IMG/VR virus record: IMGVR_UViG_3300021426_000064
Coordinates: 1 to 64,000 of that record
Reading direction: 5' to 3' (one strand)
Length of the DNA stretch: 64,000 bases
DNA from: a virus
Lineage: Duplodnaviria > Caudoviricetes
The position numbers and the translations under genes were made by a program. A model generated the notes under the pieces. The model was not told the origin of the DNA. It did not search any database and was given only the letters and a program-made list of their open reading frames with translations. Positions 5,415 to 43,715 of this stretch are shown piece after piece (the stretch's first letter is position 1; the number at the start of each line of letters is the position of its first letter).

Positions 5415-8400
5415 TCAAAAGTCGATATCGATATCGATGGCTTCTATGTCATCGATGGTAAGGGCAGAGGATTCCTTAACGGACTCTTCCGGCAGAGCAT
5501 CATACTCTGCATTCTTCTGCTCCACTTCCGTCAGCACAACAACGGCACGATTGCAATTGCTGTCTGCATAAACAACGGAAACTGCTCCATTCAAACCTTC
5601 GTAGAAAGAGCGAACGGCAGCATCGTAGCTGTACTGCTCATGATTCTTGCGAACGAATGCATCTACATCCGTATCCGTCGTGAACCCATGGCTACGAACA
5701 GCAGCTTCCTTGTTGTAATGCTTGCCATCCTTGCTGCCCTTTACATAAAGGCCGCCAAGAACTTCAGTATCTTCTCTCATGCCAAGGCGGGTATACTTAC
5801 CATCCTTAACATTTGAAAGAAGAATACGATGACCAACTTTAGAAGACATGGCATCAACGATAGCTTTGTTAATAGCAACTTGCTCGTCATTAATAATCCA
5901 CTGTTCTTCTGCGGTTTCACCATCCCATTCCGGATTCGGCATCCAAACAGATTTAAGGTCAAGCTCAAATGCTACCTGGGTACGATCCACTTCGGGAATG
6001 CTGATAAAGTCCGTCATTGGGCGGACAATTGCTGGGGAGTCATCACGCATAGCAATCTGATACATGCCATCCAGAACATTTAAAGACACATAAAGGTCTT
6101 CAATCTTCTTCATTTTGGCTGTATAGATTTCACCATCTTTTACAACAACGCTCTGCCCTTCAGTCAGAGACTCAAGAGCTTCCACATTGTTGTAACGAGC
6201 GTTAATGAATTCCACAGCTTCGTTGTTTTCACTCATCTGAATAGCAGCGTAAGCTGTTTCCTCTTTGAGGAGCTTGCTCATATTGCTGCCTGCAGAAGTC
6301 GTGATATCTTCGCCGCCTGCAAGATAACCAACGAGGTCGTCAGGAGAGACCTTGCTGTTATCACGAGCCACCATCCAGCGAATGGTGTTGGAAATAGCGT
6401 CGAAAGCGTCATCATACTTCTCATGCAGAGCTTTGCGGATTGCATCACTCTTAGAGTTGCTGACATCGCCATATTCATCAGCATTTGCGGCAAGCATTGC
6501 TTTGCGGTCTTCACGATAGACTGCATTGATTGCGCCACCCATGCTGATCGCTACCTGCAGGCGGTTTTCAATACGCTGGTCTGCAATGTGCATGATGGCT
6601 ACATCGTAAGCATTTTCACGACGAGCCTTATACTCTGCAGAATTAACTGCTGCTTTGTAGCGGGCAATTAATTCGTTGAGCTTTTCCATGGACTTTTCAA
6701 TTGCATACCGGCGATAGCTGGCGAAGAAGTCGTTGAACACAACAACCTTACGATCGTTCTGTCCTTTTCCTTCTGCCGGCCAGAAGAGCTGAACCGGCTC
6801 TTCAGCCATCACACCACGGAAACCTTCGCGGCTGATTTCATTGCCGTCCATGTCAAGAAGAATAACCTTTTCGTCCTTACGGAGCAGATCATCTTCCTTG
6901 ATTTCGGCTTTAACGTCAGCTTCCGGGTCATGGAATGCTGCCCAGTCGATAACGAAACGCGCACCAAACTTCAGCGGCGTAACCGTCATCGTTGCCTTAA
7001 GAATGGCTACAAAGTCCGTATAAACCTTGTAGAACTTCTTTTCGGCATCGATGGTGCATTCCTGAGTGTGACGGATAAGAACGTCGAAGTCTTTAATGAT
7101 TTCGAGCAGCGTATTCCACTGCTCTTCTATCGTGCCTTCAAAGCGAGTCATATGAACCGCTTTTTCAAATGCATGGTAGGCATCAAGAGTTTCGCCATTC
7201 TCATAGGTCTTCGGAGCCGTGCTTGCGGTTTCGCGGCCATAAGCATCCTTGCTCCAGGTAAGCGGAGTGTGATACTTGCCGTCGCCAGCGTCAGCTTCCG
7301 TACCAGCTTCCCATACTGTAGAGAAACAGGAGATATAAAGTTCTTTTACTTCATCACTCCAATCGATGGCGCAGAGGCCCTGGATGAGTACACGGCCAGC
7401 GTTAGTCACAGGACCAACCTTCTCATTATGATTCTGGTTGATCATGTGGAAATTGGTGGAGTACATACCTCCATTGATCTCATAACGCTCACCTTTTTCC
7501 TCCGGCTTGGTCGGTACGATATCAACAGCCAGCGGCTTAAAGCCGTAGTTGTTGAGGAACCAGGGGATATCCTTCTGACCTGCACGATGCAGGATTACAG
7601 AAGTTTTATCTCCGTCACGGTCCGAGCCGGCCAATACACTGCCAATGGCTGCCAGGTCAGAAGGCATCTCAATGATACCTTCTTTAATGCTGGCATACTG
7701 CTCAGCAGCGCAAATGACTTCCTCTTCCGTGAGATAGCCACGTTCAACGAGGTCCATCAGGGCATCGTTGATTTCCTCGTCGTCCATAAAATGAACGAGT
7801 ACGGTTTCGCGAGTACCCACAGACGGATACTTCATGAGCGCACCATAACGCTCTTCTCTGGCGGCATTAATACCGTCAAAGAAGCGAGTAGCACGAGGAT
7901 CGACAACATTCATGATGTTGCCATTGATACCTGTAACACCGACCTTCAGTGCTTCTTCAACACCGAAACGGCTCTTAATGAGCTCATACACCGGGTCGAT
8001 GCTAATCATGCTCGTATGACCGTCAAGATGATAACGGTCGAGTTGAACATGATTAGAGAGCGTACGGGCGATGTCGTTCGTGGCACCCTTAATGAGCTGC
8101 GGCCACACATTAAGTGCATCGCTATTCATGCTCATAAGTAGGGAAGAAGTATAGCCAGTATCAACTTCTTCAAAGCCACGATAATCATTGCGGCAACGGC
8201 CGTCAAGGTCAGACACCTCGTCAACCGTATGGTCTATAGCAGTTTTGATGACTTCATCCAGGTCGCTAAGCACCTGTTCTGCATTGGCGCCATTTTTAAT
8301 AGCGTCGTTTGCATTGCGGAAAAGCTTCATCCACATCTGTGCGGACGAATATACGTTCTTATCTTCATCCTCTGCATGAGGAATCATGAGGACATTCATC

Positions 8401-18496: not shown

Positions 18497-19090
18497 GTGA
18501 ACCCGCATCAACACTCACATGGCGGTGCCCGTCCCGGTGCAGGCAGGCCAAAAAAGAAAGCGCGTGACTTACAGAAAACACATAGCATCCGGGCTACAGA
18601 TAAAGACTGGAAGGAAATTCAATTGGCGGCCAGAACCATCAAGGCGTGTTCTTCTATAGATAAACGCCCACGCATTTTTATGCTCACTGACGATGAACAA
18701 GATAAGGTAAACCAATTCCTTCTAAATGGCCTTATCGAGGCTTGGCAAAATGCGCGCTGGGGTGAACCAGATACTACACCTCCACCCCAACCACCTCTAC
18801 TACAGGAGCAAAAAGAAATAGAGATAACAAAGCCTCGCAATTTTAGCGAGGAAGAAGCAGTATCTATATTTCTTGAATACTATCGAACTAACCCCATTGA
18901 ATCCGTATCTCTCATTCAAAGCAAACTTGAGCAAGAACAGCGAATTCGCGAAGCCAGAGAACGGCGGCAGCGGCAATCGGCAACAATGGATAAGTTCGAT
19001 GAGAGGATGCAGGATGCTATGGACTCTATCGATGATATAAATGAACGCATAGCAAAAATGTTACAATTTCCTGGAGCCGGTACGAAATAA
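18497..19090 (+). CDS. Putative DNA-binding regulator (GGARPGAGRP motif)
   Basis: GTG start after GGAGGTG. HGGARPGAGRPKKK. Own promoter TTGCAT-17-TAAAAT at 18446-18474 and terminator at about 19074-19110. Confidence 0.65.
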   Translation: MNPHQHSHGGARPGAGRPKKKARDLQKTHSIRATDKDWKEIQLAARTIKACSSIDKRPRIFMLTDDEQDKVNQFLLNGLIEAWQNARWGEPDTTPPPQPPLLQEQKEIEITKPRNFSEEEAVSIFLEYYRTNPIESVSLIQSKLEQEQRIREARERRQRQSATMDKFDERMQDAMDSIDDINERIAKMLQFPGAGTK

Positions 19091-19212
19091 TATCGTATCG
19101 GCTCTTTTTTATGTCTGACAATAGGGCAAATAAATACACATTGCCGGTAATACGGGGAATGAGTTCCTTAATAGCCATTCCCCTTTTCGTAGTGCTATGG
19201 AGGAAAACTTCT

Positions 19213-22200
19213 TTGGATGAACGTAAGAAAATCAAGCTGCAACAGGCGGCAGCGATTTTAAAAAATCCGGTACTCTGGGCTAAAGCTTGTGTAAAAACAG
19301 TGGATAATGCCACAAAACAAGTAGTACCTTGGGAAGCCAGATGGTATCAGAAAGAGATGCTTCTGGATAACTCTATAAAAAAGGTTGCTCGATGTGGGCG
19401 ACGAACGGGTGGCACTCTGCCCGTCCCCGACAAATTGCTGGAATACTTGGCGGCACATCATAAAAAACGTCAAGGGAATCAGCAGCGAACCTTATATTAT
19501 ATAAGGACGTTCAGAGACTAGACGCGGGGTCTGATTGTCTTGTAATCAGTTAAATAAAAAGGGGAATGCAGGATGATTTTTGAAACTAAGCGCAATGTAG
19601 TTAACAACGTATTTTCCGTAGAAATCTCTTTCGCCGGCTACGGCACGGATGAGATGGACGAAAAGCACGAACAGGCTCTCTTTAATGACCTGGGCAATCC
19701 GGTTATCAATCTGGGCGCAATCGTGTTCGAAGGCCGCTTTGATGTTGATGGGGACAAGCGTGTTGTTCCCGCAGAAGGCGAAAACGGCGACGTTGTTAAG
19801 TTTATCCAGAATGTAAAACGCTATGAACTTGCTCCGGGCTTTGTTGTAAGCTTCAGTGCCGATGCCGGCGATGTTGCAAAGTCTGAGCTTGGCGAAAAAC
19901 TCAACACGGCTCGTCTCGTAGCTGAAGCAAAGGCTCTGCTCTTCCAGCAGAAGGTGCACGAAGCTATTAAGGCTGTTGTTGAGGAGCTGAAAGCGCAGCG
20001 CACCCGTTTTGAAACGGAGACTGTTGCCACTCTCACTGTCTAATAGGGGGTGCTTGCGATATGAAGCTGAAATACGATTATGTCGTGAAGAAGCGGAAGA
20101 TTACCATAGAGCTTGAGACTGTGGATTTCACAAACAAGGAAATTCGTGCTCTTGAAATGCTCGGTGAACCGGTAATCAACTTTCAAAAAACATATCCGGG
20201 CGGATTTACCATTGCTTTGTCCAAGAAACTGCGCAGCGAGTTTAAGGCCCGCATTCGCATTGACGGGACAAATGATGTAGAGGCAGCCAACGAGGCTGGC
20301 CAGAAATTCCTCGCGGATATCAAGGAGCTTCTCGAGCTTGAAATGGAAAAACTGATGGATTCTTACGAAGATCAGGTTTTCCCGCCGATGCACGGCAAGC
20401 TCGACATTTCGGAATATAAATAATCCGTAAATATTAAATTCAAGACAATCGGAAAGGGATAGTCCTGGCCGGAGTTTTTATTTCCGGCTTGAAGACCGAA
20501 ACCATGTGCATAGATTCATTGCACAAGGCTTGTACTAATCGCTCGTTTGTATGCCTGTACGCAGCACCGTATGAGGTTCAGATACGAGCGATTTTTAACC
20601 GTTTGAACGAACTTATTTCTCTTTCCCCTGCTCTGCAGGCTATGGTAGTTTCCAATACAAAAACACCATTTGAAATTAAGTTCAATAACGGTTCTGCAAT
20701 ACGTGGCCAGACCACAGGCGCATCGTCAGGCGGCGGCGCTGTAGGGTTTCGTGGCCAGAGGGCTGACGCGCTCTATTTAGACGAATCGGATTGTTGCTTT
20801 CTTCCCTGTTTTATGTTATAGTATGTTTAGTATTAGATGTGTAATATTAAAAGCAGGAGAAGCAAAAATGAACATTGAAAATATCAAAAAAGATTACATA
20901 TTAGCCATGTTATTTGGGATGATTCTTGGTGATGGATGGCTAAGCGTCAGTGTGCGCAGTTACAAAGACTGGACATATGAAGTTTACAATATAGGTATTT
21001 CTGGGGATGTACAAGATTTGCAATGCATGATTGTTGACGCAAAAGCTAAGTTTGGCGATATTGGTAAAGCAAAAATTCATTCCAAGAGAAGTTTTTCTCC
21101 CCAGTATGGTATTGACGGCACAACAAATTATTTTGTTATGAATACAAAAATGGCAAAAATTTTTAAAAAGTTGGGTATGCCAGTTGGGAATCGTGTTCAA
21201 CAAAACTTCCTTCTACCAGACTGGATAACAAAGGGGGACGCTGCTATAAAAAAGGGGTTTATCTCCGGACTTTATGCTGCTGAGGGTGACAACTTGCTTT
21301 TTCAAAAAAACGACAAAACTCTAAAAGCACCATCTTTTGTTTTAGCTAAGCGACTGGAGCTTACCACTGGTTTTAAAGAATTTTGCGGCCAGGTTTCAAA
21401 CATCCTTCTGGATTTAGGGATTCAACATTCCATCAATTATACCAAAAAACATACATGTGCAGAAAATGTATTCGCAAGTTTTGATATTCATAACTCTATT
21501 GATAATATTTTCCTTTTCACTTCAATTCTCGATATGCGATATTGTCTTAGAAAACAGAAACGATTTACCATGGTTAATGAGTATTATAAAAAACGTATCG
21601 ACGAGGTAAATATCGCCAAAGAAGCTTACACTTATACGTTAAATCATCCAGAAGAAAGAGTTTCTGATATTGCGAAAAAATATGGGTATACCTATACGAG
21701 GGTGGCAAGCTGGAGAAAAGGAAAAAGGAATCCGGGAACAGGAAAGAGCACAATGACATTTTCAATGTTTAAAAAAACATATAGTTCGATTAAAACTCCG
21801 TTAAACGGGGGAAAGCTCGCTATAAGTAGTGAGAAAATCCCGTGCTAACCTCTGTGGTGACACAGAGAAATGCCTAACGACTAGGTGTGAGGCTCGGAAG
21901 AGTCAATAGGATCACCCACGAAAGCGGGGGAACGCCCAATAGTCTTATCGTCGATGTATCATTCTATTGGGACGAAGATATAGTCTAACCTCTGTGGTGA
22001 CACAGAGAAACCAAAGATAAAGAGCTTTGGTGTTAATACAAATGTATATGAGCAATGCGGATTTCGACTCGATCCTGGCCATTGCGGCCGAACGAGAAGG
22101 GATACGCGTATTTCTCTCGAGTACCCCAACCGGCGCGCGTAAGCGTTTTTGGCAGGCGTGCACAGATCCAAGTATGCATTTTAAGGAATTCCACTATCCA

Positions 22201-23334
22201 TCTACATGTAACCCTCAGTGGGGTCCAAAGATGGAAGAAGAATTCCGTTCCCAGTTATCTGAGCAAGGTTATATCCATGAAGTTATGGCTGACTTTGGTT
22301 CTCAGGAAACTGGTGTATTTGATAAGGATAAAATCGACGCGGCAATGAAGTTTATGCGGTATGCATATTCCCCTCTCACCTACTCTCAAAAAATGAAGGT
22401 GGACGAAAATGGATGGAATGTGGAAATGTATATTCCTCCTGAGAATATGACGATAGGCGTATACAAACCAACTAAGCTGCGCACAATGGGAATTGACTGG
22501 GATAAATATGGCGCTTCCTCCTCTATCATTATTCTTGATTACGTGCCTCGCTTTGGCCGATTCATGGTAGTGAGAAGAATCGAAGTTCCAAAAGCAGAAT
22601 ACAGCTTCGATAAGGCTGTAAACATGATTATTGAATTAAATAGGGTTTATAACCCAGCATTTATTTATGCGGATAGAGGATCAGGCGAATACCAACTAGA
22701 GATGCTGCATAAATACGGGGATCAACATCCTGAGTCTGGCCTTAAATTAAAAGTTAAGGGATTCCAGTTCTCGCAAAAGATTCCGGTTATTGATCCCGTT
22801 ACACACGTTACCGATCAAAAACCAATGAAGCCATTTATGGTGAACCAGTTGAGCATGTGTATTGAGCGCAATCAGCTTATCATGTCTCCATTCGATGAGA
22901 CACTGCATAAGCAGTTGGTCGACTACGAAGTTGTTCGCGTCGGTGCTAACGGCAATCCGGTATACACAAGTGTAAACGAACACTTTGTGGATGCTCTGGG
23001 TTTAGCGTTCTTAGCATTCGCGCTTGAGATGCCAAATGTTGCTAAGACAATTGAAGATGTGGACTTTACAGCTCACATGGTTAACGGTGAGTCTCCGTTT
23101 GCCAAGAGAGACAATGCTTCGACAAGCAAGAACTGGCGGGGCGCATCTAACCCATGGAGCAATGCAAGTCTAATGAACGGCACTGTCTCCTATAAAGACG
23201 CTCAGGATAAGAGCGATGGGGATCAGCCAAAATTCTTCCGCGCACCACTTGCTGGTACAGCTGCCAGAAGAAAGAGTAATTGGGGATCCAGAAGAAGCTC
23301 AGGTTTTGGCTTTTGTGGAAGATCAATGTTCTGA
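19213..23334 (+). CDS. terL: Terminase large subunit, three exons: 19213-19410, 20492-20791, 22045-23334 (595 aa spliced)
   Basis: Joining the exons restores Walker A CGRRTG|KTETM and Walker B LYLDESD|YM. Exon 3 has SSTPTG, MGIDW, YADRG and EHFVDAL nuclease motifs. Confidence 0.93.
19573..20043 (+). CDS. Intron-encoded protein A (156 aa), unknown function
   Basis: RBS present, codon usage similar to the capsid and sheath genes, no HEG motifs. Confidence 0.8.
   Translation: MIFETKRNVVNNVFSVEISFAGYGTDEMDEKHEQALFNDLGNPVINLGAIVFEGRFDVDGDKRVVPAEGENGDVVKFIQNVKRYELAPGFVVSFSADAGDVAKSELGEKLNTARLVAEAKALLFQQKVHEAIKAVVEELKAQRTRFETETVATLTV
20061..20423 (+). CDS. Intron-encoded protein B (120 aa), apparent paralog of A
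   Basis: ALEMLGEPVINF aligns with ALFNDLGNPVINL in A, with a similar beta-beta-helix...helix pattern. Confidence 0.78.
   Translation: MKLKYDYVVKKRKITIELETVDFTNKEIRALEMLGEPVINFQKTYPGGFTIALSKKLRSEFKARIRIDGTNDVEAANEAGQKFLADIKELLELEMEKLMDSYEDQVFPPMHGKLDISEYK
20792..22044 (+). ncRNA. Group I intron 2 of terL (IA-like), with a LAGLIDADG ORF in L1
   Basis: Exon AATCGGAT pairs with IGS GTTCGATT (21784-21791). AAACGGGG/AATCCCGTG, TAACGACTAG, AAGATATAGTCT core elements. Ends ...AATACAAATG. Confidence 0.9.
20868..21848 (+). CDS. LAGLIDADG homing endonuclease with a C-terminal HTH
   Basis: LFGMILGDG and FISGLYAAEG motifs. VSDIAKKYGYTYTRVASWRK (HTH). Start at ATG 20868 after AGGAG. Confidence 0.88.
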   Translation: MNIENIKKDYILAMLFGMILGDGWLSVSVRSYKDWTYEVYNIGISGDVQDLQCMIVDAKAKFGDIGKAKIHSKRSFSPQYGIDGTTNYFVMNTKMAKIFKKLGMPVGNRVQQNFLLPDWITKGDAAIKKGFISGLYAAEGDNLLFQKNDKTLKAPSFVLAKRLELTTGFKEFCGQVSNILLDLGIQHSINYTKKHTCAENVFASFDIHNSIDNIFLFTSILDMRYCLRKQKRFTMVNEYYKKRIDEVNIAKEAYTYTLNHPEERVSDIAKKYGYTYTRVASWRKGKRNPGTGKSTMTFSMFKKTYSSIKTPLNGGKLAISSEKIPC

Positions 23335-42759: not shown

Positions 42760-43715
42760 ATGGCAAATGCAAATAGCTCCACTTACACGAACACCTACAC
42801 CACTTTTTCGGGCTGCGATATCGTATGCTCCTTCGGTTCTCAGATTATTGGCGAACTGCAAGGTATTAGTTATTCGGTGAAGAGTTGCCGATATTAGTCG
42901 ATTTACAGATAAGGCTAATAAAGCAGTGGGGAAAAATCCTGGAAGGCTAAGTCAAAAGATAAGCTAATCAGAGGTGAAGGCGAAAGCCAGCCGCAACGCA
43001 TAGGTTTTGAAATAATAAACCCACGAGGCCCCACCTGTCTCTGTATTAAGTCGTAAGACAAGATAGAAAAGATATGCTGAACATCATAGGAAACTATGAG
43101 AACTGGAGGATAAAAAGCCTTCAGGATAACAAAATTTGAACTCGTGAAAAGGCTCCGGTGTACACGATGGGTTCTGCAAATCCTCGTTCTTTCTCTCGCG
43201 GAAAGAGGGGTATCGCAGGTACTCTCGTGTTCGTGGTTTTCGATCATGACGCTCTGCTTAAAGGCTTGGCTGAACATGTCGAAAACAACAAAGTGTTCCA
43301 TCGTATCGGTAAGGATATTAACTGGAAGCCGATGACGATTGATCAGTGGGATAATGAGATGAAGAACATCGCCGCCCAAGGTGACAAAGGCACCACCAGT
43401 CAATCTGCCGGTACTCGAACCCAGGCAATATCTCAGCAGGCAGAACCGATTATCGCGGACGAAATACCCCCATTCGATATCACCATTTCCATGGCAAACG
43501 AATACGGGAAAGCAGCGGTCATGGTGCTGTATGGCGTAGAAATTCTGAATCAGGGCAGCCAGTTCTCTATGGATAATATCCAGAGCCAGATGGCTTGCAC
43601 GTTCGTTGCTGCTCGTCTGAAATGCCTTGAGGCTGTCGACATGGCTACTGGTAAGACCATTCCTAACGGCAACTCTACTATCAACATGGATGAGTACACG
43701 ACAACCCAGAATTAA
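42760..43715 (+). CDS. Tail tube protein, two exons: 42760-42878 and 43139-43715 (231 aa)
   Basis: Splicing gives TFSGCDIVCSFGSQIIGELQGISYSV|TREKAPVYTMGSANPRSFSRGKRGIAGTL. Gene follows the sheath. Confidence 0.88.
42879..43138 (+). ncRNA. ORF-less group I intron (260 nt) in the tail tube gene
   Basis: P1 TCGGT/GCCGA with U-G. P10 GAGTT/AACTC. AAATCCTGG/AATCAGAGG. P7 GCATA/TATGC. Terminal G. Confidence 0.88.

Follow-up and report, generated by a model that had tools for sequence, protein, structure and literature searches.

Why should a phage carry two intact protein-coding genes, neither of which resembles a homing endonuclease, inside a group I intron that interrupts its terminase gene? The question is raised by a 64,000-nt stretch of viral DNA (positions 1 to 64,000 of the IMG/VR record IMGVR_UViG_3300021426_000064; hereafter, the window), in which terL is divided into three exons, and the first of the two intervening introns, intron 1, encloses a pair of genes that we refer to as A and B (Table 1). 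The answer that we favour, and consider likely to be correct, is that intron 1 is spliced in cis from the P-loop (Walker A) codons of terL, and that the loop of its P8 hairpin, L8, holds A and B as cargo, these being a terL-linked late gene pair that rides within the intron.

An earlier reading of the letters of the window alone, here termed the original prediction, had set the limits of intron 1 within the Walker A motif, between the residues GRRTG and KT, and we arrive at the same boundaries: the 5' exon closes with T19410 (GGT), and the intron closes with G20491, directly before AAG ACC. The Rfam model RF00028 matches the segment from P3 to the P3' strand (19425–19529; 31.4 bits, E 1.7e-5), over model positions 49–158 only. 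The same region was gathered from relatives and used for an RNAalifold analysis (nine lineages), for folding of P8 (11 lineages), and for a comparison of P7 and the intron boundaries (21 lineages). RNAalifold recovered P1 (exon GGGU with GCCC), P3, P4 and P6 unaided, 12 of the 26 pairs being compensatory, with one-sided changes in the pairs of P1. P8 forms a helix of 12–16 bp in nine of the 11 lineages folded, with a sequence that differs in nearly every one; the mean duplex energy is -19.0 kcal/mol for strands taken from the same locus, as against -7.1 kcal/mol for strands combined across loci. In the two most distant lineages (L023 and L019, relatives being designated by locus number), the best P8 duplex is either interrupted or only 9 bp long. 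The variable pair of P7 is A-U in 14 lineages and G-C in six, and the sole apparent exception proved to be an artefact of pattern matching. Overall, covariation is seen in P1, P3, P4, P6, P7 and P8 across 21 distinct lineages. The splice sites are also preserved: exon 1 ends in GGT in all 20 lineages that include it, and the intron ends in G before AA[AG]AC, specifying Lys-Thr, in 21 of 21. Moreover, the intron-less relative L038 carries the corresponding sequence uninterrupted (ARCGRRTGKTETMC); its junction, which reads ...ARCGRRTGKTETMCID... and encodes GRRTGKTETMC, is the exact predicted ligation product, such that joining of the exons restores the reading frame. From these comparisons, intron 1 is judged to be a functional-looking group I intron that would be spliced in cis from the P-loop codons of terL.

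The two strands of P8 enclose both reading frames, as had been predicted, lying 30 nt upstream of the start codon of A and 17 nt downstream of the stop codon of B. The 5' strand (19530–19552) also folds into a local hairpin (CTGATT ... AATCAG) when treated as a single strand, with similar pairing in close relatives; this hairpin may hold the strand until its distant 3' partner is transcribed. In L023 (354–683) and L019 (1–296), the intron is larger (~1280 nt): the P9 region is longer, and additional P7.1/P7.2-like helices separate P7 from the P3' strand. Here, the ribozyme has diversified with the cargo kept in the same loop.

Table 1. Features of the terL locus (positions in the window)
Feature	Position	Strand	Basis
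terL exon 1	19111..19410	+	Ends ...ARCGRRTG; ORF list, exon 1 profile matches in all relatives, L038 N-terminus
Group I intron 1, 1081 nt, in Walker A codons of terL (GRRTG/KT)	19411..20491	+	Rfam, covariation, junction compared with intron-less L038
Internal guide sequence GCCCGT	19419..19424	+	Pairs with exon ACGGGT to form P1, U-G wobble at splice site
Ribozyme core, 5' part: P3, P4, P5, P6, J6/7, P7 5' strand, P3' strand	19425..19529	+	RF00028 and covariation
P8 5' strand	19530..19542	+	Duplex with 20441-20453, -19.1 kcal/mol
Gene A, 156 aa, conserved phage protein, no nuclease motifs	19573..20043	+	ORF list, library and homologue searches, AlphaFold model
Gene B, 120 aa, distant paralogue of A	20061..20423	+	ORF list, profile comparison, AlphaFold model
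P8 3' strand	20441..20453	+	Duplex partner of 19530..19542
J8/7 and P7 3' strand (AAGGGATAGTCC), P9 hairpin, terminal G	20454..20491	+	AAGGGATAGTCC motif in every intron-bearing lineage; P7 covariation
terL exon 2	20492..20791	+	KTETMC ... ALYLDESD, end of Walker A through Walker B; Terminase_6N and phrog_675 matches
Group I intron 2 with LAGLIDADG ORF 20823-21848	20792..22044	+	RF00028 53.6 bits; LAGLIDADG_3
terL exon 3	22045..23334	+	Remaining ATPase domain and nuclease domain; phrog_2, E 1.3e-13

Both A and B are intact, and each is preceded by a strong Shine-Dalgarno sequence. Neither gave a meaningful match in Pfam, PHROGs, NCBIfam or PADLOC, and hence none to a homing endonuclease family (LAGLIDADG, GIY-YIG, HNH, His-Cys, PD-(D/E)xK or EDxHD), in keeping with the view in the original prediction that they are not endonucleases; LAGLIDADG_3 does match the neighbouring ORF, within intron 2. 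Homologues of both are numerous in metagenomes, and those of A make up a family of phage proteins that comprises at least 178 clusters at 50% identity and lacks a fold match. The predicted paralogy of the pair is borne out by broad profiles (hhalign probability 91%, E 1e-6, collinear over 104 columns), albeit with poorer scores from weaker queries (E 0.04 by BLASTP; 3% and 25% for narrow profiles), and by the AlphaFold models (pLDDT 87.5 each), which share one topology: a β-hairpin, a helix, a small sheet and a long C-terminal helix. A and B are therefore members of one phage-specific family of small β/α proteins. The fold searches, which included the comparison of both ORFs by Foldseek that had been proposed at the outset, yielded nothing informative for A or B apart from the family's own viral cluster. 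The top VIA chain for both proteins is one and the same unrelated chain (Z 4.9–5.0 for A and 5.3–5.4 for B); no nuclease stands among the structural-match rows, where the best PDB entries are unrelated chains with Z 5.0 and 5.4, respectively, and PDB sequence profiles gave chance-level matches only (ACP and GFP; E above 0.007). Just one acidic position is conserved in the family.

The pair is strongly constrained. Against close relatives, dN/dS for A and B is 0.04–0.07, equal to that of the terL exons, and dN also equals that of terL at larger distances. The capsid-like codon bias ascribed to gene A was found again: only four of the 29 genes have a codon-preference score above +0.05, namely, A, the major capsid protein, the sheath and g31886. 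The score is about -0.02 for B, about -0.1 for two of the three terL exons (exon 2 being near zero) and -0.12 for the LAGLIDADG gene.

How the pair is placed in other phages was established by running profiles for exons 1, 2 and 3, and for A and B, on ~90 loci. In layout I, the order is exon 1, intron half, A, B, intron half and exon 2; this is the arrangement of the window's whole clade and of L019, L023, L043, L045 and L052, with a variant carrying B alone in L053, L063 and L066. In layout II, A-B or B alone lies directly upstream of an uninterrupted terL (11 loci: L038–L042, L044, L062, L064, L065, L067 and L068); L024 is arranged likewise, but its terL contains a LAGLIDADG intein at the site of intron 1. 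Layout III consists of an uninterrupted terL without A or B nearby, and in layout IV that same Walker A site is occupied by a LAGLIDADG intein. Both intron core motifs are present in every layout I locus, and neither is present in any layout II locus (the 11 loci and L024). Since the layout II phages keep A-B, the pair is not bound to the intron. The gene context of intron-less relatives, which had been put forward as a check, thus shows the pair just upstream of an uninterrupted terL, and we therefore read the cassette as a terL-linked late pair that rides as cargo in the intron. A is lacking in the B-only genomes, and both genes must be regarded as accessory, because they are missing from several complete or near-complete related genomes.

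Intron 1 itself is found in every member of the clade with a split terL, and the order exon 1-A-B-exon 2 is kept in all relatives down to ~46% identity in A. The three other terL intron sites, including that of intron 2 in the window, are present or absent even between genomes that are 99–100% identical. Intron 1 is thus fixed, not sporadic, within the window's clade, which fits its earlier description as 'domesticated'; at deeper distance, the A-B cassette is patchy.

The in-frame LAGLIDADG inteins at the Walker A position (matching Intein_splicing and LAGLIDADG_3) were located at L024:7647–8867, L055:6465–7715, and in L075 and L077; therefore, depending on the lineage, one and the same P-loop site is empty or contains either an intein or a cargo-bearing intron. 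Additional terL N-terminal fragments were observed upstream of the real terL, as in L024:3392–3922 (a 176-residue Terminase_6N-like gene), and extra pieces resembling exon 2 lie at L060:1342–1605, in L070–L072, and in L075 at ~5933–6151. Past gene conversion or replacement of the cassette may have left these fragments behind.

On the tree of terL, the loci of layouts I and II are interleaved. L043 (layout I) and L024 (layout II) form one pair, and the B-only loci L066 (layout I) and L068 (layout II) another, each with 99% support; additionally, L038 (layout II) falls inside the window's otherwise all-layout-I clade with 100% support. The same groupings of these loci recur in the trees for A and B, at lower support (82–94%), and for this reason we reject the possibility that the interleaving is an artefact of recombination in terL. 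The notion of two ancient alleles was likewise rejected, as none of the trees groups the upstream-type loci together. The branches of layout II copies tend to be long. Apart from the swapped order of exon 1 and B, L066 and L068 are collinear, and a search beside A-B in the layout II loci revealed no remnant of exon 1 or of either half of the intron. Judging from the trees, the cassette appears to have changed place several times.

The two-gene cassette in the P8 loop would be transcribed together with terL; we infer this because neither a sigma-70-like promoter nor an intrinsic terminator was found inside intron 1 on the + strand. The template for translation of A and B would be the precursor or else the intron RNA after its excision, and ribosomes on the two genes need not block folding of the ribozyme, because the P8 strands lie just outside both reading frames. 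A more elaborate version, which we hold to be possible but doubtful, is that the ribozyme has been co-opted as an expression device: the pair would have moved more than once between the upstream and the in-intron positions, and would be spliced out as a separate RNA, the ends of which are clamped by the folded core. Were this so, the output and stability of A-B would be distinct from those of the terL message, yet timed with terL.

What A and B may do is suggested by their relatives. In P0174, a distant member of the A family, an N-terminal A domain precedes collagen repeats that strongly match tail-fibre PHROGs; in L027, a free A-like gene stands just before this P0174 fibre gene, and in L026, two tandem A-like genes lie beside tail-fibre-like and lysin-domain genes. 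Two family members weakly match PHROGs annotated as 'virion structural protein'. Longer, fused forms of B were not found on searching, although this is weak evidence. From the fibre fusion, the neighbouring genes and the codon usage, we consider it probable that A and B are abundant proteins involved in assembly or associated with the virion, perhaps as an anchor for fibres. The proposal in the original prediction that they are possibly virion proteins thus finds only indirect support. A comparison with TerS gave a mixed outcome: the position of A-B just upstream of terL fits, and no match to a TerS family was found; the topology is a β-hairpin, helix, sheet and long helix, and one member of the A family is fused to a collagen fibre.

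The most serious competitor to terL-linked cargo is that A-B constitutes a new kind of homing or mobility module, free-standing beside its target gene or lodged in an intron at the target site, and driving its own spread. The cassette is, after all, always beside or inside terL, at the P-loop, where relatives carry a LAGLIDADG intein; other related complete genomes are without it; and the interleaving of the upstream and in-intron states mirrors the route by which free-standing endonuclease genes become intron-encoded (PMC3984707). We nevertheless consider it unlikely: neither protein matches a nuclease family or fold, a single conserved acidic residue is all that the family offers, and the intron is fixed, not sporadic, within the clade. 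Moreover, the purifying selection on A-B equals that on terL, the codon usage is like that of the major structural genes and unlike that of the neighbouring LAGLIDADG gene, and one member of the family is fused to a collagen fibre. A role for A and B as splicing helpers, whether as a maturase or as RNA chaperones, for a ribozyme with P8 strands that are 900 nt apart would account for the conservation of the cassette inside a fixed intron, and the proteins are small, of α/β type, and show a weak likeness to RNA-associated folds among the low-Z rows. However, all of these structural matches fall below the tool's own stated noise level; the pair is kept under constraint, directly upstream of terL, in relatives with no intron at the site and no intron motifs nearby; and members of the family have tail-fibre-like or virion-structural genes as neighbours, or, in one case, are fused to a fibre. 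The maturase alternative raised in the original prediction is thereby not supported, and we regard any such helper function as improbable.

The other alternative raised there, a bipartite intron, in which two separately transcribed halves would come together through P8 and splice terL in trans, fares worse, and we give it very little credence. A P8 of this length could hold two RNAs together, and organellar group I introns split in their loops have been reported (PMC3873408), but here all parts are contiguous and on one strand, the intron contains no promoter-like or terminator-like site on the + strand, and the gaps between P8 and the ORFs are 17–30 nt. Last, the pieces of terL might be decayed fragments, and the RNA similarity a matter of chance, as the sub-threshold Rfam score of intron 1 could be taken to imply. 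This is scarcely credible in view of the covariation in six helices over 21 lineages, which contradicts it, the strong purifying selection on the terL exons, and the exact joining of these exons to the sequence of the uninterrupted homologue in L038. Overall, we conclude that the A-B pair is probably terL-linked cargo, and neither an endonuclease nor an intron-specific maturase.

Several observations nonetheless weigh against this conclusion. The RF00028 score of intron 1 is below the gathering score of 50 (intron 2 reaches 53.6 bits), because the model cannot span the 900-nt insert in L8. There is no homologue of A or B among 50,697 deposited phage records, and no known fold could be assigned, as nothing above noise came from Foldseek (PDB and BFVD), VIA-align (48,161 chains) or the ESM Atlas. 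Furthermore, nowhere in five genomes of layouts III and IV, three of which are 94–100% complete, was a convincing A or B found, the sole match to B being marginal (E 0.007) and having an internal stop. The patchy distribution of A-B, hugging terL, resembles that of selfish endonuclease genes, and the proteins are placed in the virion only indirectly.

To our knowledge, phage group I introns have been viewed as selfish elements, with homing endonucleases as their only passengers. Here, by contrast, intron 1 is retained across a widespread clade of gut phages with two strongly conserved non-nuclease genes. Group I introns in terL are known from the Bastillevirinae (PMC11878797) and the Jug gut phages (PMC12880540), where they either lack ORFs or carry HNH, GIY-YIG, LAGLIDADG or Vsr-like endonucleases, and occur sporadically among relatives (PMC11878797, PMC12880540). 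The present locus is alike in that a group I intron breaks conserved ATPase motifs and that a single gene may hold several introns; intron 2, with its LAGLIDADG gene, is a typical member of this set, whereas intron 1 differs in bearing two paralogous non-nuclease genes and in being fixed in its clade. A closer parallel to the cargo is provided by host genes inside organellar group I introns, such as rps3 (PMC8393795), in which a useful non-endonuclease gene likewise sits in an intron loop and is inherited with the intron; in our case, however, the intron interrupts a protein-coding gene of a phage and not an organellar genome, and its cargo comprises two genes, which are found outside the intron in close relatives. 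In collaborative homing, free-standing endonuclease genes invade introns (PMC3984707), so that, as here, a gene lies beside the intron-bearing gene in some genomes and inside the intron in others, but the known mover is a homing endonuclease, the cleavage activity of which explains the move, whereas A and B showed no feature of a nuclease. IStrons combine a group I ribozyme with the transposase of an insertion sequence, and the element transposes (PMC4227781); the likeness extends to the non-endonuclease cargo and to a ribozyme that renders the insertion harmless to the interrupted gene, whereas at our locus, a conserved pair of phage genes is carried at a single fixed site, in place of a transposase. 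Finally, the LAGLIDADG inteins of L024, L055, L075 and L077 occupy the same Walker A site, but they splice as protein, with an embedded endonuclease and no extra genes.

We came across no account of a group I intron in a phage that is fixed in a clade, carries a two-gene, non-nuclease cargo and alternates with an upstream position. What is new, then, is the presence of intron 1 in every clade member with a split terL, and the alternation of the A-B pair between the inside of the intron and a site just upstream of terL. As a natural system, the locus would allow one to ask whether a ribozyme loop can act as a harbour or expression platform for ordinary genes, how genes enter and leave introns without an endonuclease, and whether splicing couples the supply of the packaging enzyme to that of other late proteins.

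The window belongs to a 184-kb record, with an estimated completeness of 78%, of an uncultured gut phage represented by metagenomic data only. Genes for a portal, a protease, a major capsid protein and a tail sheath are present in the record, and the phage is therefore a large myovirus. Its terL gene spans ~19111 or 19213 to 23334, the uncertainty lying in the start of exon 1: an in-frame TTG at 19213, with GGAGG ahead of it at 19199–19203, agrees with the N-terminus of L038 TerL, and because of this it is probably the true start, in preference to the annotated ATG at 19111, which is abutted by a strong terminator-like hairpin (19073–19105).

Intron 2 is inserted directly after Walker B (LDESD/YMSNA). 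It is a classic mobile intron, missing from the 99–100% identical relatives L011 and L013, which instead have an intron at residue ~160 of exon 3.

In the intron-less layout of L038, similar T-rich motifs (ACGCGTGTTTTTATTTTT and ACGCTTTTTGCTTTTTT, within 6120–6471 and 7409–7502) lie ahead of both A and terL, and these may be phage-specific late promoters or terminators. Elsewhere in the window, a weak RF00028 match (22.1 bits, E 1.6e-4) was obtained at 42869–43100, where an ORF-less intron in the tail tube gene had been noted in the original prediction.

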